Positions 12,752 through 58,760 of a stretch of 64,000 nt of DNA are shown here, piece by piece (positions within the stretch are counted from its first letter, which is position 1; each line of letters opens with the position of its first letter). The position numbers and the translations under genes are program-made. The notes beneath the pieces were generated by a model that was given only the letters and a program-made list of their open reading frames with translations, did no database searches and was not told the DNA's origin. The DNA is from an uncultured Chloroflexota bacterium (lineage in GTDB: Bacteria; Chloroflexota; UBA11872; VXNJ01): positions 64 through 64,063 of the forward strand of contig CAZBZS010000009.1 in assembly GCA_964496475.1 (NCBI GenBank), written 5' to 3'.

Positions 12752-13018
12752 GAGCGGGTCGGTCGACGGTGAACGAACCGCGCCGACCGTCGGTTTCGGA
12801 TTGAATTGACAGGTCGAACGCTGGCTTGACGAGCCCGATCGGGAGTTAGTATCGCAGCCTCATCAACGGACACTGGTATCGACGGATCCGGAGCGGCGGC
12901 TCCCAATCTGCTCAGAACGTGCGGGCGCATAGTCTTTCCTGAGCGGAGCGGGGTCCCAACAGTCGTCGGAAACACGAAGTCGTTGACCTTCCAACGGGAC
13001 CCCGCCATCAGATGCGCT

Positions 13019-13204
13019 TCACGCACGTGGACACACTGGTTTTGCACGACCTCGAGGGCAACTGCTGGCGCCGGCATCACACGTCTGCTCTTTGGGGGTC
13101 TGTAGCCAGGGTTGGTCTGCAATGCCGAGGGCGTCGCCGCGTTGTTGATCGGTGGTGATGAACAGAATGTTCGGATAGTCGTTAGGTATGGTGTTCTGGC
13201 GCAC
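13019..13204 (-). pseudogene. sulfatase N-terminal remnant (truncated, frame lost after ~45 aa)
   Basis: The translation …PNILFITTDQQRGDALG… is a sulfatase N-terminal strand and metal-site motif. The ORF collapses after 61 aa and no downstream continuation exists in any frame. Confidence 0.55.
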
Positions 13205-13299
13205 AATCGGTAGGCGCTATTCTTACTTGATCGTACAGATCTAGCGAGTTCTGAATGTTCGCGATCGACTTTCCTCTTCATCGATCTCACTAACCGATA

Positions 13300-14664
13300 G
13301 TGCCACCCAACTTCCTTTTTCTCATTGCCGATGACCATCGGCACAATGCGATTGGTTCGTTGGGAACGCCTGCAGTTGCGACGCCAAATCTTGACGCGCT
13401 GGCAGCTGCGGGTACAGCGTTGACCCATACATACATCATGGGTTCGACCTCGGCGGCTGTTTGCATGCCGAGTCGGGCCATGCTGCTGACCGGACGAAGT
13501 CTGTTTCGGGTTTTCGGACCCAATCCGGGTAACGTTTCGCCATACCCGATGGATCCAGAGATACGAACGTTTCCGGAGCTTCTGCGAATGGCGGGTTATC
13601 GAACATACGGCGTGGGCAAGTGGCATAACGAACCTGGGCTGTATGCACGGAGTTTTGACGATGGCGGGAGCATTTTCTTCGGTGGTATGTCCGAGCACGC
13701 GGCGGTTCCGGTTCACACCTTCCATCCGCGAGGCATGTATCCGTTGGATGCAGCGACTCCCGGACGTGTTTTCTCATCCGAGCTGTTTGTAGATAGCGCG
13801 GCCGAGTTGCTCCGTACACATCCTGCCGAACGTCCATTTTGTATGTATGTGGCGTTTACGGCTCCCCATGATCCGCGCACGCCTCCACCGGAATTTGTGC
13901 GCAAGTATCCAGTGTCAGACATTGAGTTACCGCCCAATTTTGTCCCCACGCATCCGTTTGACAACGGGGAGTTGGGTGGACGTGATGAGCAGCTGGCGGC
14001 CCATCCTCGTGATCCTGACGAGGTGCGTCGTCATATTGCTGCCTATTACGGAATGGTCAGTCATCTCGATGCACAGATTGGCCGTTTGCTCGACGAGCTC
14101 GAGGCGACCGGTTACGCGAATGACACCATCGTCGTTTATACGGCCGACCATGGGTTGGCTCTTGGACAACACGGCTTGCTCGGGAAGCAGAATCTGTATG
14201 ACCACAGTCTGCGGGTTCCGCTCATCATCCGTGGCCCGGATGTGCCCCGGGACGAACGACGCGATGGCCTCTGCTATCTGATGGATGTGTTTCCGACAAT
14301 CCTTGACCTGGCCGGGCTGGAGCTGCCTGAGGAGTGCGAAGGCTTGAGCCTCTTACCGATGATCCAGGGGGCAGATCTGGATGTCCGCGAGTCCATCTTT
14401 GCGGCGTTCCAGAGGGATCAGGAACTCGGGGTTGAAGATTCCTTTCAGCGGGCCGTTCGCCAGGGCGACTGGAAGCTGATTGATACCCGGGCGGCAGGAG
14501 AGCAGCACAATCAGCTCTTCAATCTTGGGTCGGATCCGTGGGAGATGCGGAATCTGACAACTCAGGCAGATCAGGCTGAGCGGCTGGACGAGATGCGCAG
14601 ACTGATGATGCACTGGCGTGCTGTTGTTGGAGACACGCTGTCGGACGAATGGACGGTCCGATAG
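13300..14664 (+). CDS. sulfatase (formylglycine-dependent, C-x-P-x-R type), no signal peptide
   Basis: A GTG start is followed by PNFLFLIADDHRHN and then CMPSRAMLLTGR, the CxPxR formylglycine motif. An in-frame stop 2 codons upstream excludes any leader peptide. Confidence 0.85.
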   Translation: MPPNFLFLIADDHRHNAIGSLGTPAVATPNLDALAAAGTALTHTYIMGSTSAAVCMPSRAMLLTGRSLFRVFGPNPGNVSPYPMDPEIRTFPELLRMAGYRTYGVGKWHNEPGLYARSFDDGGSIFFGGMSEHAAVPVHTFHPRGMYPLDAATPGRVFSSELFVDSAAELLRTHPAERPFCMYVAFTAPHDPRTPPPEFVRKYPVSDIELPPNFVPTHPFDNGELGGRDEQLAAHPRDPDEVRRHIAAYYGMVSHLDAQIGRLLDELEATGYANDTIVVYTADHGLALGQHGLLGKQNLYDHSLRVPLIIRGPDVPRDERRDGLCYLMDVFPTILDLAGLELPEECEGLSLLPMIQGADLDVRESIFAAFQRDQELGVEDSFQRAVRQGDWKLIDTRAAGEQHNQLFNLGSDPWEMRNLTTQADQAERLDEMRRLMMHWRAVVGDTLSDEWTVR

Positions 14665-14875
14665 CGTGGTTCGCTTCCGGTGTCGCTCACCCGGCCAACG
14701 GGTTTCGTGTTGGGAGGCCGACAGCAGGTCCCGCCTCCCGGTCCTGCCACCCTACAATCCACTAGTCCTCCAGACCGGAGAAGAGACGGAGATAAGCCCG
14801 CATGGAACGAACGGCGATTTTGAGTACTGGTGCCCTTGCTACAGCAAGCTAGTAGCTGACTTAGAGGAGACCAGC

Positions 14876-36540: not shown

Positions 36541-37256
36541 CAGTCAAACCGGGCCAGCACGGGCAAGTCCAAGATGTCCTCTACGTCTTCGGCATACAAC
36601 CGCCGCCGGCCAACGTCCCAGACCACTACCAACACGGCGGCGATCACGATCGCCGCGATTTCCCGGATGGCCACATCGAGAACAAGATCGCTGCTGCTGC
36701 CCGGAACGGGAGCCAGGTCGATCAGGGACAGGCTCGCGACCTCGTAGATAGTTGGATAGAGGACAGCGATCTCTTCGGCGAGCACATCAGCGGCGGCCTG
36801 AGCGAGGGCGACGGATCGCACGGCGTCAGGTGTGGTCATTCTCAGTTCGAGTCCGCGATGGGTGCGATCCGTGGCGAGGGCGGCGGCGACTTCTCCGGAA
36901 GTCATTTCGGAATCGTTGTCGCGTGAAAAGCGCGCCGCGACGAGGTCGGCGAATGCGGTTCCCCGCACGATGCGGCCCAGATCGTCGACGATGAAATCGC
37001 TGGCAGTGGCGCGACTGACTTCAACGTCGTACTGACCGTCGCCGGCCATGCGGGCGGCGACGAGAACTTCCACGCGGGCCGGTTGGGTTTCCGGCCGGGC
37101 GGCGTCGGCGATCAGCGAACCGATCAAGGTGGCGACGGCCACGAGAGCCAGAAATGCCCAGCCACGGCGGAAGACGTTGCCCAAGCGCTCAGCCGGCATC
37201 GGGGGCCGCCCGGCGAGCGATCCCGGCCAAATGTTCGGCGCGGGCCATTTCCACAA
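36540..37256 (-). CDS. polysaccharide co-polymerase (Wzz)-like protein, ending with BY-kinase linker-like motif
   Basis: A TM is followed by a periplasmic region and a second TM. The C-terminus YAEDVEDILDLPVLARF resembles the start of the Wzc kinase domain. The likely start is the Met at about 37199. Confidence 0.55.
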   Translation of the reverse strand: MWKWPAPNIWPGSLAGRPPMPAERLGNVFRRGWAFLALVAVATLIGSLIADAARPETQPARVEVLVAARMAGDGQYDVEVSRATASDFIVDDLGRIVRGTAFADLVAARFSRDNDSEMTSGEVAAALATDRTHRGLELRMTTPDAVRSVALAQAAADVLAEEIAVLYPTIYEVASLSLIDLAPVPGSSSDLVLDVAIREIAAIVIAAVLVVVWDVGRRRLYAEDVEDILDLPVLARFD

Positions 37257-38316
37257 AATGCTTCATTTCTCTCACAAATACCGTCTCGTCAAACCGCTGC
37301 GCATTCTGGATCATCCGATTGGCAGCATACCGGGAATCGTCGAAATCCTTCAGCAGTCGGGTCAAGGATTCGACGGTGGGCTCGGTGAAGAACTCGCCGG
37401 TTTCCCCGGAGATCACGGTGTCGAGAGCGCCGCCGCCGGCGAAGGCGATGACCGGCCGCCCGGCGGCCTGGGCCTCAACGGGAGTGATGCCGAAATCCTC
37501 TTCGCCCGGAAAGATCAACGCCCGGCAGCGGGAGAAGTGACGCCGGACGACATCATCGTCCTGCCGGCCAAGGAATTCCACGGTCGGCCCGGCCAGGGCC
37601 TCCAAGGCCTGGAGATCGCGCCCGGCGCCGATTACCTTCAGCCGTAGGCCCAGTTCCGTGCAAGCGCGCACGGCCAGATCGATGCGCTTGTAGGGCACCA
37701 GCCGCGAGACCACCAAGAAATAGTCTTCGACGGCGCTTGCCGGGGTGAATGCGGAGGTGGCGACGGGGGGGTAGATAACCTCCGACTCCCTTCGGTAAAA
37801 GCGCCTGATCCTGTTGGCCACCGCCCGCGAGATGGCGACGAAGAGATCCACGCGCCGGGACGTTCGCCGGTCCCACGCCCGCATGAGAGCGAGCAATGGT
37901 CGCATCGCGCTGCGAAGGGCCGGGGGCACATCCTCACGGGCGAGATATTCGTTGGGGCTCCAGACGAAGCGGGTAGGTGTCAGGCAGTAGCAGATGTGCA
38001 AGGTTTCGGGCGGTGTTCGCACGGACTTACAGAATGCGCTGGCGTTGCTGATGACCACGTCATAACCGTCAAGGCGGATGGCGTTGAACGCCAGTGGATA
38101 GACGGGCAGGTACCAGCGATGGTGGCGAATGACTCCGGGCAGGCCCTGTATGAAATTCGTTCTGATGTCCAGCTCGCCGAATCTAGCGTCGACCAACCCG
38201 GAGCCGTAGATCGACGTGTGGACAGGTGCGTCGGGATACATCGCCGAGAGTTGGAGGAGAACGTTTTCCGCGCCGCCCATCTGGTTGAGCCAGTCGTGCA
38301 CGAGGCCGATTTTCAT
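37189..38316 (-). CDS. glycosyltransferase family 4
   Basis: Begins MKIGLVHDWLNQMGGAENVLLQL, so the probable start is at 38316 although the ORF extends to 38364. The C-terminus is GT4-like and ends PVEAQAAGRPVIAF. Confidence 0.8.
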   Translation of the reverse strand: MKIGLVHDWLNQMGGAENVLLQLSAMYPDAPVHTSIYGSGLVDARFGELDIRTNFIQGLPGVIRHHRWYLPVYPLAFNAIRLDGYDVVISNASAFCKSVRTPPETLHICYCLTPTRFVWSPNEYLAREDVPPALRSAMRPLLALMRAWDRRTSRRVDLFVAISRAVANRIRRFYRRESEVIYPPVATSAFTPASAVEDYFLVVSRLVPYKRIDLAVRACTELGLRLKVIGAGRDLQALEALAGPTVEFLGRQDDDVVRRHFSRCRALIFPGEEDFGITPVEAQAAGRPVIAFAGGGALDTVISGETGEFFTEPTVESLTRLLKDFDDSRYAANRMIQNAQRFDETVFVREMKHFVEMARAEHLAGIARRAAPDAG

Positions 38317-38369
38317 CGAGCTAGCTGTACTTCCCACGAGCATTGTTGACAGGTGAGATCCCACTCTCC

Positions 38370-39600
38370 CGGGTTTGTGGTTGTAAAAACACTCCAGCCC
38401 GGAAGGGGACTCTCATGGAACATGCTAATACGCGACCGACCAGCCACAGCCACCGTCTGTCTCTTTTAACGGCGGACGCGAGTTACGGAACAGGCGTCAG
38501 CAGTTACGGAAATGAATTTCATAACTGCTGTAACACCAACGTTACCCACTAGCCACTAGAACGTTTTTTCCGGATTTCCGGTGGGGCTCGGGCAAGTCGG
38601 CTTTATAGGTTTGGGAGGGGGTGTACAGAAGAGTGAAGGTTGTGGGTTTTGTCCACAAGCGGCTGGAGGCTGGATTTGCTGAGGTCTGCTGGCCGGTCCG
38701 TCCCTGTGAATTGCGCTTGAAAGAGTGGCTTCTGTGGTGGAGGCGTATGGCGGCCGTCGGGTTGGCCGCTCACAGGTTTGGGTCCACTATCTTGTGGTGG
38801 GCTTGTGGAGGTTCGGGTGGCGTGGAAATTAGAGGTCCACAGGGAAGGATTCGCTGAAAACAGGATTGGGTCGTTTTTGTGGATGGCTTATGGAGAAGGG
38901 TATTTCATAGTGTATTGGTTATTTGTTGAGTGCCTTTTCAGTCTGTTGTTTTCCACGCCGTGGGCGCATCGCACCCAGCCAGATATTGGAATATGAGATT
39001 TATTTCCTATCAAGGATATTATTTTTCGGATTCGGATATCCATAGAAATTTCGTGTATTTCCAGGAAATTATAATGAGAGGGAGAGGAGAAATGAGCGGT
39101 TGGTGGGAGCAAAATGTAGGGTTGGGAATGGGAGGGGACGGGATTCCTTCAAAAAAGGACAGGGGATTGGGCGGGCGATGAGAAGCCGGCGGAAAAAGGC
39201 GGACTGGAGGTATGCGCTGGATGTTTGGAGCAGTGATTGAGAAGGGGTATGGAAACTCATCGGTCTGGGAGCGCGGGGCGTCGGGCCCGGAGATTCGGGC
39301 AGCTGACAACCGCTGGCGCGGGGAGATACAGACTCAATAATCAGGTTGACGGTAGGGGCGATCCGGGTCTTTTCTTGTGCCCCCATGCTCTTAGGTCGAT
39401 GGTCGGCCTGGCCGTTCTCCGCCACTGCGACAAGCTCGGACGCGATCGGGCAGGTGAAGCGAATCAGCTTCCGCTGCTGGCGGTGCTTCCCTGCCGGTTC
39501 AAGTCCTGCGATCTACGCAGACCCCACACCACCCTCGACGGCTCCCCGCCAACGATCGTTCTTGTAAAACAAGGTTGGTAGGAACTACAGCCAGCGTGCG
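38370..39600. other. 1.25-kb AT-rich, cytosine-depleted non-coding island inside the EPS locus
   Basis: No credible ORF is present. Plus-strand composition is G+T then G+A rich with very few C for about 700 nt. Repeated TTGTGG(T)GG motifs and G-quadruplex-type runs such as GGGTTGGGAATGGGAGGGGACGGG (39119..39142) occur. Confidence 0.6.
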
Positions 39601-39618
39601 GCGCGGTAGCGGCTCCAG

Positions 39619-41124
39619 CTAGTACGCGCCGTCGCCACGAATCACGGCGGGGATGGTGCGCAGAATGATCTTGATATCGAGCCCCAAGGACCAGTGCCCG
39701 ACGTAGTAGGTGTCGAGCATGACCATCTCCTCGAAGGAGAGGGTGCTACGTCCGCTGACCTGCCAGAGCCCGGTGAGACCGGGCAGGACGCGCAGGCGGG
39801 TGTGCGCCCAGTCGTCGTACTGGGCGACCTCGTCAGGGACCTGGGCCCGCGGCCCGACCATACTCATATGCCCCATAATCACGTTGATGAACTGGGGCAC
39901 TTCGTCGAGGCTGGTGCGGCGCAGCAACCGTCCCACCTGGGTCCGGCGGGGGTCGTCCTTTCGCTTGAACAACGGCTCGGAGGAGGAGCCGGGATACAGA
40001 TCCTCCATCATCTTTTCCGCCCCGAGCACCATGGAGCGGAACTTGTGGAGCCGGAACTGACGCCCGTTGCGGCCGACGCGCACCTGCTGGAAAAGGATGG
40101 GTCCGCGGCTATCGAGTTTTATGGCGATGATGACCAGCAGCAGAAGCGGCGACAGCAGAGTCAAAAGGAGAGAGGCCATAACGGTGTCGAGCGCCCGTTT
40201 CTGCACATAGTTGAAACCGGAGATTTCGTTGGTGCTGAGAGTAAAGAGCGGGATGCCGCCGATTTCCTCCGTGTGCAGCCGCCCGGCCTGCACATCGGCC
40301 AAGTCGGGCACGATGGTGCACCGAATTCCGTTGGACCGGCAGGCGGCTACGGCGTCGCTGACGGCCAGGGCGGAAGAGGGCGGTAAGGCGACGACGGCCC
40401 GATCGGCGCCGTTTTCCCGTAGGGCGGCAGCGACACCGTCGGGCCCGGCCAATCGCCGGAACCTGCCGAAGTCTTCGTTATCATCCATCTCGTGATCCAC
40501 GAAACCAACGAGCAGCAAACCTGAAGCGGGGGCCGCCGCCAACTGCTGCATCAACATCTTGGCCATGTTGCCGCGCCCGACCACCACGACACGCTCCACA
40601 TCCCGTCCACGCTTGAACCGGGCGATGCGCAGCGAGCGCAGGGCATATCGCCAGAAGGCGATCAGCCCAAAGCCGGCTAGGAGGAGATATCCAAACATCA
40701 GGCGGGAGAAAAACGCAGGCCGAAAAAGAAAGAACACGATGATTACGGCGGCGGTCGCGAGCAGGGCGGCCATAGCCAGTTTCGGCACTTCGTCCAGCCA
40801 GCGGATGGACCGGCGGCTCGCGTAGGAGCCGTAGAAATGGAGCGCAAGAAGCATGACCGCGACAAAAGTCACTCCGACCGGCCAATATTCGTCCAGCGGA
40901 GTGAACTGAAATTCGGTCAGGTCCGGTCCGAGGCGGAGCTCATACCGGAGCCAGTGCGCCAGAAAAAAGGCTCCGGTAATCGCGACAATATCGCCCAGCA
41001 AGGTCACGAGTTGCCAGCGGACGCGACCGCCGGCCCGCCCTTGCGGCGAATCCGGAGCCGGGCCGGCAGCGGGCGATGCCGTCTTCAAGAAGGTTCCGAA
41101 GCCAGCTGGTAGGCGTCGCGGCAT
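39619..41124 (-). CDS. polyprenyl glycosylphosphotransferase (WbaP/CpsE-type initiating sugar transferase)
   Basis: An N-terminal TM block is followed by the C-terminal motif …PLFKRKDDPRRTQVGRLLRRTSLDEVPQFINVIMGHMSMVGPR. Confidence 0.85.
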   Translation of the reverse strand: MPRRLPAGFGTFLKTASPAAGPAPDSPQGRAGGRVRWQLVTLLGDIVAITGAFFLAHWLRYELRLGPDLTEFQFTPLDEYWPVGVTFVAVMLLALHFYGSYASRRSIRWLDEVPKLAMAALLATAAVIIVFFLFRPAFFSRLMFGYLLLAGFGLIAFWRYALRSLRIARFKRGRDVERVVVVGRGNMAKMLMQQLAAAPASGLLLVGFVDHEMDDNEDFGRFRRLAGPDGVAAALRENGADRAVVALPPSSALAVSDAVAACRSNGIRCTIVPDLADVQAGRLHTEEIGGIPLFTLSTNEISGFNYVQKRALDTVMASLLLTLLSPLLLLVIIAIKLDSRGPILFQQVRVGRNGRQFRLHKFRSMVLGAEKMMEDLYPGSSSEPLFKRKDDPRRTQVGRLLRRTSLDEVPQFINVIMGHMSMVGPRAQVPDEVAQYDDWAHTRLRVLPGLTGLWQVSGRSTLSFEEMVMLDTYYVGHWSLGLDIKIILRTIPAVIRGDGAY

Positions 41125-43470: not shown

Positions 43471-43687
43471 ATGGCGCAGCCCCTTTCGGCGCCCGGCGGG
43501 AGCCGCGACACCTTAGCCGCTCCGCTCGCCATCCTTTGCGAGCACAACAGGTCGGTAAAACCAGAACTATTCGGCAAAAACCGTGTCCTACCGCCGCAAA
43601 GCCCCGAGAATCGGGCCTTCGCTTCCCCTCGGTTATTCCCTTAACCTTCCAGGGGCGATACGAGTGGCACCCTATCATTCGTAGGGT

Positions 43688-44236
43688 ATGGGGTCAAAGG
43701 CCACCGGCCTGAAATCGCTCCGCGAAACACACTTTCCAACGAGGCTGATGCGTTCCGGTATACCGTCTCCCCCGCCGATCGACCATTTCTGGGTCGTCCC
43801 CGGCCGACTAGCCGGCGGCGGGCATCCGGCACGGGCCGGCCCGAAGTCGGACGTACTGCACGCCATGGAGCGGCTGGGCTATGACGCGATCCTCACCCTC
43901 ACCGAGGACGCTCTTGACGCGGAAGCCCTTGATGAATTCGGTTTTCGCTATATGCATCTTCCCATCGTAAACATGGAGGCCCCGTCCCTCGCCGAGGGCG
44001 AGCGCGCGGTCGAATTCTTACGGCGATGCGTCGACGACGATCTCCAAGTGTACGTCCACTGCTACGCGGGGTACGGCCGCACGGGCGCGATCCTGGCCGC
44101 GTATCTGGTTGCCACCGGCGTGGGACCTTTCGCGGCGATCGAGCGCGTGCGCACCGTCCGCCCCGGCGCCATTGAGAGCGTGGCACAGGAGCGATTCGTG
44201 CTCGAATTTTCTCGTCGGGTCCAGGAAGGCGAATGA
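43688..44236 (+). CDS. dual-specificity / tyrosine protein phosphatase (CX5R)
   Basis: VHCYAGYGRTG P-loop. Confidence 0.75.
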   Translation: MGSKATGLKSLRETHFPTRLMRSGIPSPPPIDHFWVVPGRLAGGGHPARAGPKSDVLHAMERLGYDAILTLTEDALDAEALDEFGFRYMHLPIVNMEAPSLAEGERAVEFLRRCVDDDLQVYVHCYAGYGRTGAILAAYLVATGVGPFAAIERVRTVRPGAIESVAQERFVLEFSRRVQEGE

Positions 44237-45315
44237 GCTGTCCCGACTTAGCCGGGGCGGCCCGCCTCCTGGATGAGGCGGTCGCCGGGGGCGTCATACC
44301 GGGGGCGGTCGCCCTGGTTGATATTGGCGGTAAAGCCATGCTGGACCACGCGACCGGCGACGCCCAGACCGTGCCGGTGGTCCGACCGGTACGATCCGAC
44401 ACCATTTACGACCTGGCCTCGCTCACTAAGGCCGTCGTCACGGCGACGGCGATCATGATCCTGGTCGACCGGGGCGCACTGCACCTGCGCCAGCGGGTGG
44501 TCGAAGTCCTTCCGGAGTTCGCCGCCCACAGTAAGGACGACGTTCATATCCTCCACCTGCTCACGCACACATCCGGTCTCCCAGCCCGGAACCGGGTCTC
44601 GCGAACCGCCAGCGACGCCGCGGAGACGGTCCGCCTGGCGCTCGGGATGTACAAAATGTATCCAACCGGCAGCCGCGAGCTTTATACCGACCTGGGATTC
44701 CTGGCTCTGGGGGAAATCGTCAGCCGAACGGCAAGCGCGCCGCTGGACGAATTCGCCATGAACGAAATCTTTGGCCCGCTTGGCATGATCGACACGGGTT
44801 ACAACCCCAACGCCGACCGCCGCGGCCGCTGCGCCGCCACGGAGGACGCGCCCCACCGGGGCGGGGTGATCGTGGGCGAAGTCCACGACGACAAAGCCCA
44901 GCTGATGAACGGCGTCGCGGGACATGCTGGAATTTTTGGTACCGCCGCCGATCTGGTCCGTTTTGGCCGCATGCTGCTAAACGGCGGGGCGCTCGACGGA
45001 GCCCGCATTCTCTCGCCAGCCGCCGTGGCGGCGTTGAGCCGTAATCAGACCCCTCACCTCCCTACCGACCGCGGCCTAGCCTGGGCGCTGAGCCCGGGGC
45101 CGGGCTTCGCCTTCGACGACCTTACCGGGCCGGCGGCTTTCGCGCATACGGGCTTCACGGGCACGTCGATTTATGTAGATCCCGATGAAGATCTGGTTGC
45201 GGTTTTGCTGACCAATCGCGTGCATCCGTCACGTGACAACCGGGCATATTTCGGCCTCCGCTCCCGGTTCCATAACGTCCTCTACGCCCACGTAAGGCAG
45301 GTTGCCAATGAATGA
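44233..45315 (+). CDS. serine hydrolase, beta-lactamase/PBP-related (class C-like)
   Basis: SLTK (SxxK) motif, with an ATGA overlap with the upstream gene. Confidence 0.75.
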   Translation: MSCPDLAGAARLLDEAVAGGVIPGAVALVDIGGKAMLDHATGDAQTVPVVRPVRSDTIYDLASLTKAVVTATAIMILVDRGALHLRQRVVEVLPEFAAHSKDDVHILHLLTHTSGLPARNRVSRTASDAAETVRLALGMYKMYPTGSRELYTDLGFLALGEIVSRTASAPLDEFAMNEIFGPLGMIDTGYNPNADRRGRCAATEDAPHRGGVIVGEVHDDKAQLMNGVAGHAGIFGTAADLVRFGRMLLNGGALDGARILSPAAVAALSRNQTPHLPTDRGLAWALSPGPGFAFDDLTGPAAFAHTGFTGTSIYVDPDEDLVAVLLTNRVHPSRDNRAYFGLRSRFHNVLYAHVRQVANE

Positions 45316-46105
45316 TCTGGCAGAGCCAGCCGACGGCGATCCGGTAGCTAAGAAAAAGCTGCCGGAGGCAGCCTTGTCGGGCAGCAAATCGCCGCGGGTC
45401 ATCTTTTTCGACGCTTACGGAACGATCTTCACCGGCGGCAATTCAGACGACCCCACTACCGACCTTCGCCGGGGCTTGGCCGCCGCCGGCGTGGAGGCGG
45501 AGCACGATGTCCTGGCCGCCGCGCTCAAGCAGGAAATGATCCACTATCGCCATCGCCAGCGCGGCGTGCGCACCCGGGAGGGGCTGGAAGAGCTGCGCCG
45601 CGAGTGCGGCCAGATCATCATCGACGGCATCGGTGGGAGCGAAGTCTGCCCCCTGAGCGACGCCGAGGTCGCCGACATCCTCATTGCCACGTTTCCCAGC
45701 CGCGTCTTCCCCGAGCTACCAGAGGCGGTCGCCCGCGCCCGCGCCGCCGGTTGCCGGGTCGGGGTGCTCAGCAATTTCAGCTATCTGTTGCCGATGATTC
45801 TGGACGACCTTGAGATCGGCGAGCTATTCGACTTCGTCGTCCATTCGGCCGGGGTGGGTTTTGAAAAACCGCACCCGCACATCTTCCACGCCGCCCTCCA
45901 GGAAGCTGACGTCGCCCCCCACCAGGCGGCTCTGATCGGGGATACCTACGGGGAAGACGTGGCCGGGGCGACGGCGGCCGGGATGATCGCCGTGTTTCTG
46001 GATCGTGCGGGCGACTCCACCCTGAAACATGGGCTAGTCGCCGGCAACCTGCTCGATGCCGTTGAGTTGGCTCTGAACGCCACCTCTCCGAGATTCGCAG
46101 CGTGA
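45302..46105 (+). CDS. HAD superfamily hydrolase (subfamily IA)
   Basis: FFDAYGTIF (DxYGT) motif I. Confidence 0.7.
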   Translation: MPMNDLAEPADGDPVAKKKLPEAALSGSKSPRVIFFDAYGTIFTGGNSDDPTTDLRRGLAAAGVEAEHDVLAAALKQEMIHYRHRQRGVRTREGLEELRRECGQIIIDGIGGSEVCPLSDAEVADILIATFPSRVFPELPEAVARARAAGCRVGVLSNFSYLLPMILDDLEIGELFDFVVHSAGVGFEKPHPHIFHAALQEADVAPHQAALIGDTYGEDVAGATAAGMIAVFLDRAGDSTLKHGLVAGNLLDAVELALNATSPRFAA

Positions 46106-49817: not shown

Positions 49818-50429
49818 ATGAAGGTCCTAGGCATCACCGGCAACATCGCCGCCGGCAAATCCCTCGCCGCCTCGATGCTCGCTGAGCGCGGCGCCCATGT
49901 CATCGATGCCGACGCGGTGGTGCATAAGCTTTACCATCGTGGCACACGCGTTTTCGAGGCAGTCACCGCCCGCTTCGGCGAGTCGGTCGCCGGCGCTGAG
50001 GCCATCGACCGCGCGGAACTGGCCTCGATTGTGTTCGCTGACCGCGAAGCGATGCTTGAGCTAGAAAGCATCGTCCATCCGGCGGTCGGGGAGGCGATTC
50101 GGGAGCGGCTCGAAACCCGGCCTCCGGCTACGCCTGCAGTCATCGAAGCCATCCGCCTGGTCGAGGGGGTCAGCGCCGATTTGATCGACGAGCTCTGGAT
50201 CGTCACCGCGCTACGGGACGAGCAGATCTCCCGGTTGGCCGAACAGCGGGGGCTCGATCGCGCCGGCGCCGAGAAGCGCCTGGACGCCCAGAGCGATCCC
50301 GCCGCGAAGGAGCGGGCCTTCAAGGAGCGTCGCCCGGGGGTCCCGGTCCGCTACCTGGCCAACCCGGGCTCCGTGGAAGAGTTACGGGCTGGCGTCGAAC
50401 TTGCGTGGGAAGCATTCCTCGGGACCTAG
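49818..50429 (+). CDS. coaE: dephospho-CoA kinase
   Basis: MKVLGITGNIAAGKS P-loop, full length. Confidence 0.9.
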   Translation: MKVLGITGNIAAGKSLAASMLAERGAHVIDADAVVHKLYHRGTRVFEAVTARFGESVAGAEAIDRAELASIVFADREAMLELESIVHPAVGEAIRERLETRPPATPAVIEAIRLVEGVSADLIDELWIVTALRDEQISRLAEQRGLDRAGAEKRLDAQSDPAAKERAFKERRPGVPVRYLANPGSVEELRAGVELAWEAFLGT

Positions 50430-50510: not shown

Positions 50511-51977
50511 CTAGCCAGTCAACTGATCCCATACTCGTTCCACGGCGGCCGAGTCTGTGCCCACCACCAGGTAGATGTCGTCACCATCGCGAAATAGCCG
50601 GGCGGCGCGAAAGTCCTTCTCCCAGGTGACCAGGTCGCCCGCCGCGAGCGTGCGCCCTGGCTCGGCCTGGAATGGGTCCAGCCAGTTTTCCTGCAGGAAG
50701 AACGTGGCGTTGTCCCAGAACAGATCGGCGGCCGGCGGGTCCCAGCGCATCTTCAAGATCAGCAAGTTGTCCATGCCGTTCTCGTAGATCACGTACTCGT
50801 CCCCGCCCCATCCATCGGCCAGCAGATTTCCGGGCACGAATCCGCCGAAAAGGAGATCGAGGAAGAAGGCGCCCATCACGTTGCGCCGCTGTTCCCGCCA
50901 GCCCAACATCGCCGACTCGCTAAGATCCGGTACCTCTACGTCCTGCGGCAGCTCGCCAGTCAGGTACTTGTCCGGATAGAGGATTTGTTCCGTCGAGACC
51001 GGCAGATCGGCGTAGGCGGCATCGACCCGCTCCCAGCCGCCGACCTGGATCAGGCGCTCGACGAAGGCCTGCCCGGCGGTATACGAGAAACCTAACAGAT
51101 CCTCCAGAAACATTCGCGCCCGGCTCGGGACCGAGCTCGGAGTCCGGGCCGGCGTCATCTGGAACTCGGTCAATTCCTCCTGGGTCACCACCTGGAGAAA
51201 CGCGACCACGCCGGCCACGGTCGCGTCGCCTTCGACGAGCGCGGTGAAGGCCTTGGACGCGTCCACGTTGTGGTTACCGATGGCCTCGTCGATGGCTCCG
51301 AGGTCAAAGACGGCGTCCTGCAGCGCATGGACGTATTCGTGGGTCAAAACATATTTCAGCATCCCGAGGCCGGCATCGCCCTCGCCGATTACGAACATCG
51401 TCTTTTCATCCTGGTTGTAGAGCCCCAGCACGTCCTCGCCGAGCAATTCGAGCTGAACTTCCAGGATGTCCTCGCCCGGCGCCAGAATCCCCAGAAGGCT
51501 CCACTCGATGTTGTCCATCGCCTGTTCCTCTGGCGGGTAATCCTCCAGGATGACCTCAAGCAGGTAGGCGGCGAGCTCTTCGCGATTTAGCAGGCCGGGC
51601 TCGATGTCCACCGCCGGCAGGCTGCGAATCGCCGACACCACCGGCGCGGCCTCCGCCAGCACAGCCGTCGCCGACGATCCATTCTGATTCGGTTCCGCTG
51701 GGGGTTCGGTACTTCGCGGAGTGGAGACCGCTGTCGTGGCCGTCGCGGTCGCAACCGGGACCGGTTCCGCTGGTTCTGTCGGCGCTGCCTCAAGCAGGTC
51801 TTCCCGGGCCGTTTGCGCCGTTGGCGCAAACTCCAGAGGGACCACTGTCGCGACTGGTGCTGAATCCTCGGTAGTCCGGGATCCAGCGCAGCCGGCGAGC
51901 AAGACTGCCACGGCCGCCACCAGCGCCATCATCAGCAGCGACGGTAGCCGTCTCCGACCGATTGCAAACAAGGACAA
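50511..51977 (-). CDS. secreted lipoprotein with HExxH motif (putative zinc metallopeptidase-like), Pro/Thr/Ala-rich linker
   Basis: Signal peptide plus lipobox LLAGC, followed by a low-complexity linker and then LTHEYVHALQD. Confidence 0.6.
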   Translation of the reverse strand: MSLFAIGRRRLPSLLMMALVAAVAVLLAGCAGSRTTEDSAPVATVVPLEFAPTAQTAREDLLEAAPTEPAEPVPVATATATTAVSTPRSTEPPAEPNQNGSSATAVLAEAAPVVSAIRSLPAVDIEPGLLNREELAAYLLEVILEDYPPEEQAMDNIEWSLLGILAPGEDILEVQLELLGEDVLGLYNQDEKTMFVIGEGDAGLGMLKYVLTHEYVHALQDAVFDLGAIDEAIGNHNVDASKAFTALVEGDATVAGVVAFLQVVTQEELTEFQMTPARTPSSVPSRARMFLEDLLGFSYTAGQAFVERLIQVGGWERVDAAYADLPVSTEQILYPDKYLTGELPQDVEVPDLSESAMLGWREQRRNVMGAFFLDLLFGGFVPGNLLADGWGGDEYVIYENGMDNLLILKMRWDPPAADLFWDNATFFLQENWLDPFQAEPGRTLAAGDLVTWEKDFRAARLFRDGDDIYLVVGTDSAAVERVWDQLTG

Positions 51978-52070
51978 AGAATGGCTACCTTGTGGCGAAC
52001 TTCAGCCGCAAGCTTAGCTGACGCTTCGGCGGTCGTTTGTAGCCAATCCAACCATCCCCGGGAGCCGTCG

Positions 52071-53189
52071 ATGAAGATTCAGGCGCTCAACGTCCACCAT
52101 CTCACCTGCGAACTCGAGCACACCGCCTGGAACTCGGTTACGGCCCATCCCACCCGGCCGGCGCTGGTGGTCGAAGTCGTCACTGTCGACGGAGTCTCGG
52201 GTTGGGGCTCGGCCGCTGGCGGCGCTCGCGGGGGTGAAAACCGGCTGGCAGCCGCCACCGAACTGCTGCCTGGAAAAGATCTGCGCGACTGGGGCATTCT
52301 GCTGGCCGGTCTCACGCCGGTCCACGGACGCGGCCGCAACGTGGTAGCCGCCATCGAGACCGCTCTGCTCGATGCCCTTGGCCGATCTCTGGACATTTCC
52401 GTGGCTGGAATGTTGGGCCTCCAGCGCCGCCGGGTACCCGCCTACGCCTCCGGCGGCTATTACTACGATCACCTGCCCGACCGCCGCGATCTATTACGGC
52501 TGGAAGTCGCCGATGCCCGCGCGCGCGGCTTCCGCTACTACAAGATGAAGATCGGGCGGGTCGCCCCGGAGCAGGATCTCGAAGACGTGGTCGCCGTGCT
52601 TGAGGCCGCCGGGGACGCGATGCGCGTCGCCGTCGATCCCAACTGCGCGTACTCGTATCCGGTGGCCCTGGAAGTCGGCCGCGCCCTCGACGACCTCGGC
52701 GTGCTCTGGTACGAGGAGCCCCTGCCGAAGCGCCAACTGGATGCCTATCGCGAACTGCGCGGGAAGCTGGAGGTCCCGATCGCTGGCGGGGAAGGCTACG
52801 CCGATCTGGGCGAGTTCCAGCAGGCACTGGCGGCCCGGGCCATGGACATGGTGCAGCCCGACCTCAGCGGGGCCGGCGGATTCCACGCCTGCCTGGATGT
52901 GGCGGCGGTGGCCGCAGCGCACGGCGCCGCCTGCTTTCCGCACTGCTGGGCCGACTCGCTGCACATCATGGCCAGCGCCCACCTGCTCGCCGCGATGCCC
53001 GAGAGCCCGGGTATCGAGTTCGGCGCCCCACCGTTGCTGGAGTACGACGTGACCGAAAATCCGATTCGGATAGAGTTGCTAGGCGGAGAGCCGCCGGTCG
53101 ATGCCGACGGCTGTGTGGCCATCCCTGACGCGCCCGGGCTAGGCGTTGAGGTGAACCGCGAGGCGCTGATGAAGTTCGCCATCGCCTGA
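52071..53189 (+). CDS. enolase-superfamily enzyme (mandelate racemase / muconate lactonising enzyme family)
   Basis: KxK (YYKMKIG) and metal-ligand Asp/Glu motifs (VDPN…, LWYEEP). The start at ATG 52071 has a GGGAG ribosome binding site, and the track ORF extends upstream. Confidence 0.8.
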   Translation: MKIQALNVHHLTCELEHTAWNSVTAHPTRPALVVEVVTVDGVSGWGSAAGGARGGENRLAAATELLPGKDLRDWGILLAGLTPVHGRGRNVVAAIETALLDALGRSLDISVAGMLGLQRRRVPAYASGGYYYDHLPDRRDLLRLEVADARARGFRYYKMKIGRVAPEQDLEDVVAVLEAAGDAMRVAVDPNCAYSYPVALEVGRALDDLGVLWYEEPLPKRQLDAYRELRGKLEVPIAGGEGYADLGEFQQALAARAMDMVQPDLSGAGGFHACLDVAAVAAAHGAACFPHCWADSLHIMASAHLLAAMPESPGIEFGAPPLLEYDVTENPIRIELLGGEPPVDADGCVAIPDAPGLGVEVNREALMKFAIA

Positions 53190-53255
53190 ACGAAGGCCGG
53201 GTATCTGCTAACTCTCCCTTTCACGGCACCGGCGCGAGGGCACAGGGGATTCAGG

Positions 53256-54221
53256 CTGAAAGTCACCGAAGTCACGACCCACGTCATCAACTCCACCTAG
53301 CGCAACCTGGTGTTCGTCCGTGTCCACACCGACGCCGGCGTTATCGGCACCGGCGAGTGCACCCCGGCCTACGCCACCGGCGCGATGGGCACGGAAGCGG
53401 CGGCCCGCGAGATCGCCGCTTACCACCTGGTGGGCCGCGACCCGATGGACATCGAGGCGTTTTACGACCGCGCCTACCGCGATAGCTTCTGGGGTCGCAA
53501 TCTAGGCGTACTCTTCATGGGCGGGCTCAGCGGTCTGGAGCAGGCCTGCTGAGACATCATGGGCAAGGTGCTGGACGTTCCGGTCTGGCGGCTGCTTGGC
53601 GGCAAGTGCCGGGACAAAATCCGCCTGTACTCCAACGGCTGGTACATGGAGGCCCGCGCGAGCGGGGAGTTGCAGGGCTACGTTGACGCCGCTAAGAGGG
53701 TCGTTGACGACGGCTTCACCGCCATGAAGTTTGACCCCTTCATGGGTAACCCGACGCTCAACGACGCCATTCTGCCGAAGCACATCGACGCCTTCCGCGA
53801 CGGCCCCATCGTCGAGCGCGTGGCCGTCGTCCGCGAGGCGGTCGGACCGGACATCGACATCATCGTGGAAGTCCACGGCTGGTTCGACGTGGGCATCTGC
53901 GGCAGCATCGCTGAGATTCACAAGATCGCCGCCCATGCCGAGACCTATCACATCGGGATAGCCCCCCATAACTGCAACGGCCCGGTGGCCACGGCGGCCA
54001 GCGTTCACGCCGACTTCGCGACCTCCAACTTCGTCATCCAGGAGTGGTTCCCTTACGAGCTGCCCGAGCACTACGGCCTGGTGGATCATCCCTTCGTGCC
54101 GACCCACAAAGGCGGTTACCTGGACCTCCCGGAGCGACCCGGCCTGGGGGTCGAACTCACCGAGCTCGCGCTGTCCAAAAACACCTACAAAGCCCTCCGG
54201 GAGGCGCCCTCTTCCCAGTAG
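53256..54221 (+). pseudogene. enolase-superfamily dehydratase (galactonate/mannonate dehydratase-like) pseudogene: CTG at start position, in-frame TAG and TGA at conserved Trp sites
   Basis: A single frame reads LKVTEVTTHVINST*RNLVFVRVHTDAG…GLSGLEQAC*DIMGKVLDVPVWRLLGG… The TGA sits where homologs have the invariant W of ALWDI-GK, and the TAG sits at a probable W. An AGGGGA ribosome binding site precedes a CTG where M is expected. Confidence 0.6.
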
Positions 54222-54249
54222 TGCAAGAATAGGGGCCCATCCTTCTCAA

Positions 54250-55098
54250 ATGGCGGTAGCGGCTATGGCCCTGACGATCACTGAATTTCGCGCCCGGAAG
54301 GGCTCGGACGAAAAACTGGCGTTGCTAACCGCCTACGACGCTGCTGCTGCGCGGGCCGTCGAGGCGTCGGGAATCGACGCGATCCTGATCGGGGACAGCG
54401 TCGGCACCAACGTGCTGGGCTACGATTCGGTGGCCCAGGTGACGGTGCGGGACATCGTACATCACGCCCGGGCGGTGTCGCGGGGCGCCACCGATACCCT
54501 GCTGATCGCCGACCTGCCGTTCCTCAGCTACCAGGAATCCGACCGCCAGGCCCTGCGCAACACCCGGCGCTTGATCCAGCGCGGCCGGGTCCACGCGGTG
54601 AAGCTGGAAGGAGGTCGTGCCGTGGCGGACCGGGTTCACGCCATCTCCATGGCCGGAGTGCCGGTGATGGGCCACCTAGGGCTAACCCCGCAATCCGTGC
54701 ATCAACTAGGCGGCTTTCACGCGCAGGCTCGAGATTACGATTCGGCCCGGGGACTGCGGGGCGGCGCGCTGGGTCTGGAAAAAGCTGGGGCCTTCGCGGT
54801 CGTCCTAGAAACCATACCTCACGAACTGGCCAGGCTGGTGACGGAGCGACTCTCGATTCCGACAATCGGCATCGGGGCCGGGCCGGACTGCGACGGGGAA
54901 ATCCAGGTGCTGCACGACGTTGCCGGGTGGAATCCCGATTTCCTGCCGCGCCACTCGCGGCGCTTCGGAGACTCGGCGAAGGCCACGACCTACATCGTGG
55001 AGCAGTACATCGAAGCCATCCGCAACCGCAAGTTTCCGTCGACGAAGAACAGCTTCCAGATTGGGAAGAATGTGATGAAGCAGCTGGAGGAAGAGTAG
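54250..55098 (+). CDS. panB: 3-methyl-2-oxobutanoate hydroxymethyltransferase
   Basis: LTAYD…ILIGDSVGTNVLGYDS…ADLPFLSY core. Confidence 0.85.
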   Translation: MAVAAMALTITEFRARKGSDEKLALLTAYDAAAARAVEASGIDAILIGDSVGTNVLGYDSVAQVTVRDIVHHARAVSRGATDTLLIADLPFLSYQESDRQALRNTRRLIQRGRVHAVKLEGGRAVADRVHAISMAGVPVMGHLGLTPQSVHQLGGFHAQARDYDSARGLRGGALGLEKAGAFAVVLETIPHELARLVTERLSIPTIGIGAGPDCDGEIQVLHDVAGWNPDFLPRHSRRFGDSAKATTYIVEQYIEAIRNRKFPSTKNSFQIGKNVMKQLEEE

Positions 55099-55125
55099 GG
55101 AGGGGACTCCACCCGTTCTGGCGTG

Positions 55126-55170
55126 GACCGGGGCCGGTCTTGCGGCCCGCGAACTCTAGTATTTTTTTTG
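55126..55170 (+). terminator. candidate intrinsic terminator after panB
   Basis: A GGGCCG-gtcttg-CGGCCC hairpin is followed 12 nt later by a T8 tract. Confidence 0.4.
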
Positions 55171-55222
55171 TCACCCCATTTATGATGCCGTGGCCAACGT
55201 TCATCGCTGGGGGTAGCGAATC

Positions 55223-55852
55223 GTGACTGAAGACACCGCGGCCTCAGCGCCCAAATCCGACTATCCGGCCACGCTCTGGGCCGAGAAACCGGAGGCGCCA
55301 TCACGCTTGATGGCCGTGCTGCTGATCCTGTTGATCAAATTCATCCTGGCGGTGCCGCACGTGACCGTCTTGACGTTCTACTGGTTGGTGGCGCTCATCG
55401 TGGCTTGGATTGGCTACTGGGCCGTGCTGCTCACCGGCAACCTTCCGCCAGGATTCCACAGCTTCGTGCTCGGGTACCTGCGCTGGAACTGGCGGGTGAA
55501 CGCCTGGCTCTACGGCATTGCGGATGAGTACCCGCCTTTCGCCGCTGAGGCCGACTACCCGGCCGACGCCCGCTGTGCACTGCCGGAAGCGGGTAATCGA
55601 CTCCTAGCGGCGGCTCGCATCCTGAGCCCGATCATCGTGATTCTATTTATCCCCCACCTGATCGCGCTCTCGGTGATGGCGATCGTCGCGACGCTCGTGT
55701 TTCTTATCACCCCGTGGGCGGTGATTTTCACTGGTGGCTTCCCGCAGTTCGCTTTTGATATCCTTGTCGGCGTGGCCCGCTGGCAGCACCGGGTTGCCTG
55801 CTTCCAACTCGGCCTGGTCGAACAGTACCCACCCTTCAGCATGTCTGAATAG
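55223..55852 (+). CDS. DUF4389-type membrane protein (two internal repeats)
   Basis: Two repeats of PHxxxL…W…LxTGxxP…RWxxRVxAxxxGLxxxYPPF. Confidence 0.6.
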   Translation: MTEDTAASAPKSDYPATLWAEKPEAPSRLMAVLLILLIKFILAVPHVTVLTFYWLVALIVAWIGYWAVLLTGNLPPGFHSFVLGYLRWNWRVNAWLYGIADEYPPFAAEADYPADARCALPEAGNRLLAAARILSPIIVILFIPHLIALSVMAIVATLVFLITPWAVIFTGGFPQFAFDILVGVARWQHRVACFQLGLVEQYPPFSMSE

Positions 55853-55936: not shown

Positions 55937-56683
55937 TTACCCGAGTGTCAGGCCGCCGTCCATGATAAGGGTCTGACCGGTCACCACTTCGGATTCGATC
56001 AGGAACACGGCCGCGTGGGCGATCGACTCGGGCGAGCAGGCCTTCTTGATCAGTGTCTTTTCGATGTAGCCACTTACGAAATCGTCCTTTCCCTCCACCC
56101 AGCGGGTCAGGATCACGCCGGGCGCCAAGGCGTTCACCCGCACTTCCGGCGCGAACGCTCGCGCCAGCGACTGGGTCAGGGTGATCAGCGCTCCTTTCGA
56201 GGCGGCGTAGGCGATGGAACTTCCCGATCCGGTGACTCCCGCCACCGAGGAGATATTTACTATCGCCGCCCCGTCCGATTTCTTCAGGTGTGGCATCGCC
56301 GCCGCCGCCACGTAGAAGGGCGCCTTCAGGTTTACCTGCAGGATCTCGTCCCACTTGTCCGAGGTCATGCCGTCTAGGTCGGTATGGGCCACGAAGTGGG
56401 TAATGCCGGCGTTATTTACCAGCACGTCCAGTCGGCCCAATTCGGCCACCGTGTGCTTGACGAGCGCCGCGCTCGCTTCCCGGTCGCCGACGTTTGCCTG
56501 GTAAATCGTCGTCGGGACGCCCAGCGCCTTCACCCTGGCCAGCGTGTCTTCGGCCTCGGCGCGGGAACGCGAGTAGTTGATACAGACGCCCGCGCCGCGT
56601 TCAGCCAGAGCCAGCGCGATGGCCGCGCCAGCGCCGGTGGCGGAGCCGGTAATCAGGCCGACACGTCCTTCCAAGTCAATCAT
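55937..56683 (-). CDS. SDR family oxidoreductase (FabG-like)
   Basis: TGSATGAG Rossmann motif, NNAG, and the YAASK catalytic dyad. Confidence 0.85.
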   Translation of the reverse strand: MIDLEGRVGLITGSATGAGAAIALALAERGAGVCINYSRSRAEAEDTLARVKALGVPTTIYQANVGDREASAALVKHTVAELGRLDVLVNNAGITHFVAHTDLDGMTSDKWDEILQVNLKAPFYVAAAAMPHLKKSDGAAIVNISSVAGVTGSGSSIAYAASKGALITLTQSLARAFAPEVRVNALAPGVILTRWVEGKDDFVSGYIEKTLIKKACSPESIAHAAVFLIESEVVTGQTLIMDGGLTLG

Positions 56684-56867
56684 CGCGTTCTCCCCGGCGG
56701 TGTTGTCCGGGCGGCTCGCGCCCCATCAAACAGGACCACCGACCGCCCTTAATTGCTGGACCGTTCAGTCAGGTTATAGACTAGTGCGCGCGATAACACG
56801 GGAAAAACCGGTCCAGGGACCGAAGCAATCTAGATTGGACGGGTGGCCGTCCGCAGGAGGTGGGCTG

Positions 56868-58760
56868 ATGTCTAACGGTTTCATGGGCAAGATCCTGAAC
56901 GTGGATCTGAGCGCGGGCGCTCTGTCGGACGAGGTGATCGCGGACGATATTCTTCGCGATTACGTCGGGGGCTACGGCCTGGCCGCGCGCCTTCTGTACG
57001 AGCGTATGCCGGCCGGGGTGGACGCGATGGGTCCTGAGAATTTGCTTGCGTTCTTCACCGGCCCGCTGACCGGCAGCCCGAGCATCGAGGGCAACCGCTT
57101 CGTGGTGTGCTGCAAGTCGCCGCTGACGGGCGGCTGGGGTGACGCCAATTGTGGCGGCACGTTCGGTCCGGCCATGAAGGGCGCCGGCTACGACGGCATA
57201 ATTTTCTCCGGCGTCTCCGAGAAGCCGGTCTACCTGCTGCTAGATGACGGCGAGCCGAGCCTGCACGAAGCCGGCGATCTCTGGGGACAGGACTCCAACG
57301 AAGCCGAGGAGGCGTTGCAGAAGGAGTACGGCGGCGACGGGCGTATCAGCAAGGCCCAGGTGGCCGTGATAGGTCAGGCGGGGGAAAATCTTTCTTTCAT
57401 CGCCAGCATCATGAACGACTACGGACGGGCGGCCGGGCGCTCCGGGGTCGGCGCGGTGATGGGGTCGAAGAGGATCAAGGCGATCGTCGCCCGCGGCAAC
57501 CAGAAACTCCCGATGGCCGATAGTGCGGCTGCGGCGGAAACCCGTCGCCGCTACCTGCCCACTGGAAAAGAACTTTCCGCCGAAGGTAAGGGCGCACACG
57601 ACAGTTTCGTTGACTACGGCACGATCGGCATCACCGGAGAGTCGTCCTATTCGGGCGACTCTCCCATCAAGAACTGGGGCGGTCAGAGCAACGTTGACTT
57701 CAAAGAAGGCCGGGACGCCTTTGAGAAGGACATGCTCATCGACGACTACCAGGACCGCAAATACGGTTGCTGGCGTTGCACCATGGCGTGCGGCGGCCAC
57801 ATGAGCGTCAAAGAGGGGCAGTTCGCCGGCACCAAGCACCACAAGGTCGAGTACGAGACGGCGGCGGCTTTCGGGACGATGAACCTGATGTCGTCGTTCC
57901 CGCACCTGGTCAAGATCAACGAGATGTGCAATCGCTACGGATTCGACACGATCTCCGCCGGCGTTACCACCGCGTTCGCGGTGGAGTGCTTTGAAAACGG
58001 GATTCTCACCACCGAAGACACGGACGGGCTGACGCTTGCCTGGGGTGAAGGCGATGCTCTACTGACGTTGCTGGAAATGATGGCGTACCGCAGGGGCATC
58101 GGCGACATCCTGGCCGACGGGGTGAAGGTCGCGGCGGAGAAAATTGGCAAGGGCTCCGAACAGTACGCGATGCACATCGGCGGCGAAGAAGTGCCGATGC
58201 ATGACCCCAAGTTCGAGCCCGGCCTGGCGCCGACGTACAAGCTGGATGCCACCCCCGCCCGCCACACCCAGGGCGGCGAGTTGGTGCCCCCGCCGGACGT
58301 CGACCCGCCCGAAGGCTACGATAAGTACCAGTACGATTCCCAGGCCGACTGGCACAAGTACCTGGTGGACGCGGTGCATGTGGTCAATTCGGCCGGGGTG
58401 GGCCTGTTCGCCTGGGCCTCGTACCCGCACACGTTCATCCCCGACTTCATGGAGGCCATCTGCGGACACACCGGCTCGACGGAGGAGATGCTAAAAGCGG
58501 GTGAGCGGATAGCCCAGATACGGCACGCGTTTAACTTGCGTGAAGGCATCAATCCGGTGGAAATCGAAATACCCGGTCGCATAATCGGCGACCCGGCTCA
58601 GACCGATGGCAACCTGAGGGGCGTTACGGTCGATATCGACATGCAGACGGAGAAATTCTGCGAGGCGATGGGCTGGGACGAGAAGAGCGCCGTGCCCAGC
58701 CGTGACCGACTGGAGAGCGTCGGCGGGCTGCAGCCGGTGATCGCGACGATTTACGGATAG
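56868..58760 (+). CDS. aldehyde:ferredoxin oxidoreductase family (tungsten/molybdopterin, AOR)
   Basis: MSNGFMGKILNVDLS… AOR N-terminus with Cys ligands for the [4Fe-4S] cluster. The ATG at 56868 has a GGAGG ribosome binding site, and the track ORF extension from 56577 overlaps the SDR gene. Confidence 0.8.
   Translation: MSNGFMGKILNVDLSAGALSDEVIADDILRDYVGGYGLAARLLYERMPAGVDAMGPENLLAFFTGPLTGSPSIEGNRFVVCCKSPLTGGWGDANCGGTFGPAMKGAGYDGIIFSGVSEKPVYLLLDDGEPSLHEAGDLWGQDSNEAEEALQKEYGGDGRISKAQVAVIGQAGENLSFIASIMNDYGRAAGRSGVGAVMGSKRIKAIVARGNQKLPMADSAAAAETRRRYLPTGKELSAEGKGAHDSFVDYGTIGITGESSYSGDSPIKNWGGQSNVDFKEGRDAFEKDMLIDDYQDRKYGCWRCTMACGGHMSVKEGQFAGTKHHKVEYETAAAFGTMNLMSSFPHLVKINEMCNRYGFDTISAGVTTAFAVECFENGILTTEDTDGLTLAWGEGDALLTLLEMMAYRRGIGDILADGVKVAAEKIGKGSEQYAMHIGGEEVPMHDPKFEPGLAPTYKLDATPARHTQGGELVPPPDVDPPEGYDKYQYDSQADWHKYLVDAVHVVNSAGVGLFAWASYPHTFIPDFMEAICGHTGSTEEMLKAGERIAQIRHAFNLREGINPVEIEIPGRIIGDPAQTDGNLRGVTVDIDMQTEKFCEAMGWDEKSAVPSRDRLESVGGLQPVIATIYG

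Follow-up and report, generated by a model that had tools for sequence, protein, structure and literature searches.

A probable recent unitary pseudogene of an enolase-superfamily dehydratase-like gene in a marine Chloroflexota lineage

Is an enolase-superfamily reading frame that is broken by stop codons a dead gene of the organism, an error of the assembly, a fragment that has kept some role, or a gene read with an altered code? The locus that raises this question lies on a stretch of 64,000 nucleotides, analysed as a whole and referred to here as the window. At 53256..54221 of the forward strand (+), a single frame of 321 codons, closed by a TAG, runs uninterrupted apart from exactly two internal stops, and bears the remnant of an enolase-superfamily (MR_MLE) dehydratase-like gene whose intact form is 384-391 aa long. 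Open reading frame listing of the region returned only an 80-aa ORF (53310..53552, +) and a 220-aa ORF (53559..54221, +; protein P0009), and the public scaffold gene calls give the same two, each as a separate gene. A preliminary description, made from the bare sequence, had taken the locus for a dehydratase gene inactivated by the two stops and by a CTG at the start position. With a probability of roughly 0.9, we regard the locus as a genuine, recent and ordinary unitary pseudogene in a marine Chloroflexota lineage.

In order to place the remnant in a family, the frame was translated with its stops read as tryptophan. The N-terminal Pfam domain MR_MLE_N (PF02746) was matched at residues 16-115 with an E-value of 1.5e-15 (57.8 bits; cut-off 22), and the C-terminal domain MR_MLE_C (PF13378) was matched in two stretches with an E-value of 1e-29; these matches, together with lesions at conserved sites, bear out the description of the locus as an inactivated enolase-superfamily dehydratase gene. 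The complete barrel of MR_MLE_C is absent from the remnant, whose best stretch covers positions 126-217 of the 219 in the model, whereas the full domain is present in P0001, the nearest intact ortholog. Among solved structures, the remnant matched the 'putative dehydratases' 2poz, 2ox4, 2o56 and 2gl5 with E-values of 1e-48 to 1e-51 (2poz, 2.7e-51). These uncharacterised structures (2gl5 being listed together with 4e6m) belong to the mandelate racemase / acid-sugar dehydratase branch of the superfamily, both domains of which are recognisable in the remnant, and the intact orthologs carry E-x-H, YEEP, GER, QPD and PH motifs spaced as in DgoD.

The preliminary description had suggested alignment to the DgoD/ManD family, a name which proved too specific. 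P0001 scored 287.6 bits against the model of DgoD, D-galactonate dehydratase, NF010624 (cut-off 311), 188.5 against that of ManD, D-mannonate dehydratase, NF043051 (cut-off 550) and 178.9 against NF011654, a DgoD-family subfamily (cut-off 430); the intact orthologs also fell below the NCBIfam cut-offs of the other named dehydratases, and the best solved relatives are the structural-genomics 'putative dehydratases' listed above. Many homologs nonetheless carry the JGI annotation 'galactonate dehydratase', and the likeness to DgoD is real: identity is about 35%, and each catalytic residue and metal ligand has its counterpart in the intact ortholog. When P0001 was aligned with E. coli DgoD, taken from NC_000913.3, its residues E205/H207, E231, E257, D280, H307 and E332 fell on DgoD D183/H185, E209, E235, D258, H285 and E310 with identical spacing. 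We take DgoD residues 183, 209 and 235 to be the metal ligands, and His185 and His285 the acid/base residues. The first ligand is an aspartate in DgoD, in contrast to the glutamate of the intact ortholog. The dgo operon, moreover, includes dgoK, dgoA and dgoT, none of which lies near the window gene; its neighbours are instead a second enolase-family gene and panB. The sequence comparisons thus place the intact orthologs among the acid-sugar dehydratases of the enolase superfamily, with a family name at the level of the substrate remaining unsupported.

Four disabling lesions are present in the window copy: a changed start codon, two tryptophan codons turned into stops, and a deletion of 207 bp. 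The preliminary description had listed the first three; its list was correct as far as it went, but it missed the deletion. All four keep the reading frame, and the locus could therefore be read as one frame in the first place. Both stops had been attributed to G-to-A changes of TGG, and this was confirmed, as the DNA of the syntenic ortholog on contig L003 has TGG at both sites (and GTG at the start) in a nucleotide alignment, and parsimony over five orthologs places both changes on the window lineage. The first is a TAG at codon 15 (Trp15; 53298..53300, +), produced by G>A at 53299, and the second is a TGA at codon 99 (Trp99; +), produced by G>A at 53552; each is private to the window lineage. 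The TGA had been assigned to 53551-53553, one base too high, and occupies 53550..53552. Its assignment to the tryptophan of the ALWDI-GK motif, more exactly A(L/C)WDI-GK, holds: this residue is kept in 14 of 15 aligned homologs and in E. coli DgoD. Tryptophan stands at both stop sites in all ten of the closest orthologs, every ortholog compared at the nucleotide level has TGG there, and Trp15 and Trp99 are invariant in 13 of 13 intact orthologs.

At the start position, the window has CTG (53256..53258, +), a probable start-codon loss; no in-frame ATG, GTG or TTG occurs between the upstream stop (53187-53189) and 53256. A Shine-Dalgarno-like AGGGGA lies six nucleotides 5' of this position (53244..53249, +), and its equivalent on L003 is GGGGGA. 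The CTG and its preceding ribosome binding site are thus as first described, with an amendment to the ancestral state, since the nearest orthologs (L003 and L006) begin with GTG and an ATG is found in the more distant ones (L007-L011). Because the two nearest orthologs begin with GTG, the change would most simply be read as GTG>CTG. The alignments of 16 and of 13 sequences give Met, Trp and Trp in the orthologs at the three sites of point lesions. Among the four lesions we give the CTG the least weight, since translation can start, if inefficiently, from such a codon; it may even have served as a weak working start before the gene was inactivated.

The most destructive lesion is the deletion. 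In the nucleotide alignment with L003, 207 bp (69 codons) are missing in frame between 53885 and 53886 of the window, and the L003 segment which is absent starts and finishes with GACGTG; the window keeps a single copy of this 6-bp direct repeat at the junction (53886..53891, +). The deleted segment corresponds to residues of about 213-281 of P0001 and includes YEEP (E231), SGER (E257) and QPD. The same gap of 69 residues appears in the alignment to a solved structure, in which residues 1-210 of the remnant match 3-210 of 2poz and residues 211-303 match 280-372. Within the deletion fall 44 of the 231 columns that are invariant among the 13 intact orthologs, as do the second and third metal-ligand glutamates (E231 and E257 of P0001); all three ligands are present in the orthologs, whereas the remnant keeps only E205, in EVHGW. 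The acid/base histidine equivalents are both kept (the H of EVHGW and the H of APHNC). The loss would take out roughly barrel strands 4-6. The window copy differs from its branch of the superfamily in having no canonical start, two premature stops, and 69 residues fewer, two metal ligands among them. It is predicted to be incapable of yielding a functional dehydratase, and its fragments are probably devoid of function; even a product of read-through would be expected neither to bind the catalytic metal nor to close the barrel.

The search for an intact counterpart in relatives, which the preliminary description had recommended, was successful. A protein search gave 1298 matches at E <= 1e-20, nearly all of 380-395 aa, and intact homologs matched the stop-as-tryptophan translation with an E-value of 8e-195. 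The nearest ortholog in a 16-sequence alignment is P0001 (384 aa), with 91% identity over the columns that both occupy, followed by sequences at 84-87%; a collection of 5.8 billion proteins yielded no intact protein above 91% identity. P0001 is encoded on L003, a contig of 318 kb, and on two shorter contigs (L004 and L005), where it is flanked by the same enolase-family paralog and the same panB. Gene order on L003 equals that of the window over about 20 kb, the common order being rib genes, coaE, DUF8575, the 372-aa enolase-family gene, the pseudogene or its ortholog, panB, DUF4389, SDR, AFOR, ThiF, rhodanese and DUF3604. A scan of GTDB species representatives yielded six further intact orthologs (L006-L011), 75-97% identical to P0001, from metagenome-assembled genomes labelled Chloroflexota in five cases and Rhodospirillaceae in one; at L006, L007, L008 and L011, both flanking genes, the paralog and panB, were recognised as well. 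The intact orthologs are 384-391 aa long. The window gene is probably the single orthologous copy of a conserved gene and hence a unitary pseudogene.

The length of the window frame agrees with this relationship: 384 - 69 + 6 = 321 codons. The six additional C-terminal codons are an extension common to L007, L008 and L011. The L003 and L006 orthologs stop six or seven codons earlier, at a TAG where the window has GAG. Given these earlier stops and the use of GTG or ATG starts, both ends of the gene appear somewhat fluid even among functional copies of the ortholog group.

We considered whether the stops and the deletion could be sequencing errors or a chimeric consensus of strains, the gene being intact in the real organism or organisms. 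The sequence is metagenome-derived and comes from one sample, and the comparison was made at the level of assemblies. Three were compared: the window, ENA HARO18-2_SAMN05992386 scaffold_212 (112,787 bp; L001), and a contig of the independent Logan assembly of SRR5007147 (L002). They appear to come from a single sample and probably from the same reads, SAMN05992386 and SRR5007147 presumably belonging together. The assemblies disagree at 54758-54774, at 58401 and at an N-gap near 45321, which points to strain variation or local misassembly on the scaffold; strict clonality is thus not given, and lesions of different strains might conceivably have been joined in one consensus. Over 53190-54260, however, the three are identical base for base, all four lesions included. 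Four independent lesions, combined with nine missense changes at positions that are invariant in 13 orthologs, are unlike random error, the density of private substitutions is close to that of neighbouring genes, and the loss of a segment flanked by direct repeats is typical of biological change. Among assembled sequences, none carried an intact allele more than 91% identical. Three look-ups define how widely the allele was seen: an exact-protein look-up of the 220-aa fragment returned only three contigs, all apparently of the same sample; the exact 30-mer across the deletion junction had no match in JGI metagenome contigs; and a pattern spanning the TGA/TGG site, in which the variable base was entered as R, retrieved only L006 from those contigs, and so no second sample with this or an intermediate allele. 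An artefact is, in our judgement, very improbable.

A related reading would keep the lesions and change their meaning: the four could be independent loss-of-function alleles, favoured by positive selection for loss of the dehydratase, which the assembly has merged. If these were segregating alleles, they would represent adaptive gene loss of a dehydratase in a marine Chloroflexota population; the prospect that either this reading or retention of the 220-aa fragment as a truncated protein is correct is slim.

How long the gene has been dead was addressed through its substitutions. The pairwise dN/dS between the pseudogene and its L003 ortholog is 0.079 (dS 0.51; Nei-Gojobori), and 13 neighbouring genes range from 0.06 to 0.22; the GC3 of the two fragments is 0.86-0.87, matching the highest genes of the window. 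Because dN/dS lies within the range of the neighbours and GC3 is still high, we infer that inactivation was recent and that purifying selection probably acted on the gene throughout most of the divergence. Changes private to the window branch comprise 17 synonymous, 15 missense and 2 nonsense substitutions, as against 20, 5 and 0 on the sister stem and 54, 30 and 0 in five pooled neighbour genes. Expressed as non-synonymous to synonymous changes, the ratios are 17:17, 5:20 and 30:54, respectively, and the difference between window branch and neighbours is not significant (Fisher p = 0.21). The proportions expected under neutrality with the observed mutation spectrum are 34% synonymous, 63% missense and 2.8% nonsense. 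The mix on the window branch lies between constraint and neutrality and may reflect some relaxation; we estimate, roughly, that the branch was neutral for between a quarter and two-fifths of its length. Of the 15 missense changes, nine fall at columns invariant in the 13 intact orthologs: V38A, E76D, P83L, A126S, P173L, A191V, L210F, G286S and E350V.

Two nonsense changes among 34 substitutions are unremarkable, since about one would be expected if all were neutral and one may itself be the inactivating event. GC>AT transitions account for 19 of the 34 private changes. Mutation in bacteria is usually biased from GC to AT, and the conversion of TGG to TAG or TGA is therefore the commonest route to a stop. 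As both stops arose by G>A, deaminase-type hypermutation was considered and rejected: a share of 19/34 looks ordinary, and the density of private substitutions in the pseudogene is similar to that in neighbouring genes.

The history that we favour for this pseudogene is a simple one. One of the four lesions would have come first and led to the death of the gene; the 207 bp were presumably lost by slippage or recombination between the two GACGTG direct repeats. The remaining lesions, and some nine missense changes at sites that are invariant elsewhere, would then have built up in the absence of selection, and the publicly called ORFs of 80 and 220 aa would be residual fragments of the dead gene. 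In all of this, the locus resembles the unitary pseudogenes of bacteria, which are known to carry nonsense transitions and short-repeat deletions. The likeness extends to the intact syntenic orthologs and the lesions at conserved positions, to the GC>AT-biased spectrum (19/34), to the deletion at a 6-bp repeat, and to the splitting of the remnant by gene finders; we see no essential difference in the window copy.

It could still be asked whether the 220-aa ORF, or a transcribed remnant, has kept a role or gained a new one, either as a truncated subunit or as a spacer with expression signals for panB. The ORF begins with a genuine ATG, has a GC3 of 0.87 and is called as a gene publicly. As the preliminary description had reported, panB lies downstream (ketopantoate hydroxymethyltransferase, 277 aa as called; 54265..55098, +), only 43 bp 3' of the pseudogene, and no terminator-like hairpin was found between the two, which makes transcription through the remnant plausible; on this arrangement, the remnant is possibly co-transcribed with panB. 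Scans of 51900-55300 gave no promoter-like sites, and terminator-like matches there were at chance level. Against a role for the fragment, its ATG is the ancestral internal methionine of DIMGK, also a methionine in the closest orthologs such as P0001, and not a new start. The fragment lacks the entire capping domain and two of the three metal ligands, and it carries P173L, A191V, L210F, G286S and E350V at invariant positions; its high GC3 is to be expected from recent inactivation alone. Retention of such a role appears highly unlikely.

Recoding of TAG, TGA or both (for example as tryptophan), with translation of the gene in full, is scarcely credible: although both stops sit exactly at tryptophan codons and reassignment of TGA to tryptophan exists in some bacterial lineages, we know of no code that reads both TAG and TGA as tryptophan, neighbouring genes are called at the same lengths as their L003 orthologs (372, 277, 209, 248 and 630 aa), the product of read-through would still be without two metal ligands owing to the deletion, and the usage of stop codons in the window led us to reject it, as 55 likely genes end in TAG (27), TGA (19) or TAA (9). 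The preliminary description had reached the same view from two examples, both of which are correct: TGA closes the gene at 7322-8467, and TAG closes coaE (49818-50429).

The upstream enolase-family gene (52071..53189, +) is intact, as had been stated; it encodes 372 aa with a full MR_MLE_C domain and is syntenic in the relatives. It is only 26% identical to P0001 and its best NCBIfam matches differ, so that by sequence it is a distant member of the superfamily and not a redundant one, and would not serve as a back-up copy. Only two enolase-family genes, this one and the pseudogene, occur in the 64-kb window.

As for the host, the relatives are Chloroflexota MAGs and the run SRR5007147 is listed as a marine metagenome (PMC7414124), and the organism is therefore an uncultured marine Chloroflexota. 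It is plausible that the genome belongs to SAR202, groups I and II of which have large enolase-family expansions, with D-galactonate dehydratase as the commonest enolase annotation (PMC6946804). The marine sample, the Chloroflexota relatives and the homologs annotated as D-galactonate dehydratase resemble that setting, in contrast to the mere two enolase-family genes of this 64-kb window; the word 'pseudogene' does not occur in the main text of that study (PMC6946804).

The pseudogene raises no new biological question; its interest lies in annotation and as an example. Two listed proteins, of 80 aa and of 220 aa (the latter deposited as P0009), are pieces of one dead gene, and a census of enolase-superfamily paralogs in marine Chloroflexota would wrongly include the window copy as functional. 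It also offers a clean, small case of a pseudogene at an early stage of decay, in which nonsense changes of the GC>AT type at tryptophan codons and a deletion at a 6-bp repeat have appeared while codon bias is still intact.

Several further observations concern the assemblies and the remainder of the window. Within panB, the window and the ENA scaffold (L001) differ at six positions in 17 bp (54758-54774), with LRGGALGLEKAG in the window against LLEDALALEKAG in the ENA scaffold; of these, the first four are shared by the Logan contig (L002), which stops at 54765. The cluster reflects strain variation, or else it arose as a local error when the window version was assembled or polished. Along about 43560-45330 of the window, the ENA scaffold is shifted by 50 bp relative to the window on the upstream side of its ten N (at about 45321-45330), and at 58401 the window has G and the ENA scaffold T. 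From the shift with its N run and the difference at 58401, we take the window to represent a third version of this scaffold. Searches for Rfam families and tRNAs across the entire window detected only a tRNA-Leu at 999-1084, and nothing in or near the pseudogene locus.

The DUF8575 protein (50511-51977, -) is 473 aa on the ENA scaffold and 488 aa as the longest ORF of the window, versus 384 aa in L003 (7224-8378); the surplus resembles an N-terminal low-complexity region rich in Ala, Thr and Pro behind a lipoprotein-like signal. The longest ORF of the aldehyde:ferredoxin oxidoreductase (56577-58760, +) is 727 aa from a TTG and overlaps the divergent SDR gene (55937-56683, -) by 107 bp; its true start is probably near 56868, and public calls give 630 aa. 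About 1.25 kb at 38365-39618 is without a convincing ORF or an Rfam match and lower in GC (0.573 for 38001-40000), and is flanked by genes for 391 aa (37189-38364, -) and 501 aa (39619-41124, -), whose translations resemble those of a glycosyltransferase and a sugar transferase. GC also falls to 0.575 at 12000-14700, where the one ORF of 12752-13299 is antisense, 340 aa long and implausible in its composition. A 454-aa ORF (13300-14664, +), presumably sulfatase-like by its translation, was missed by the GC3 filter for likely genes, and its composition is possibly atypical.
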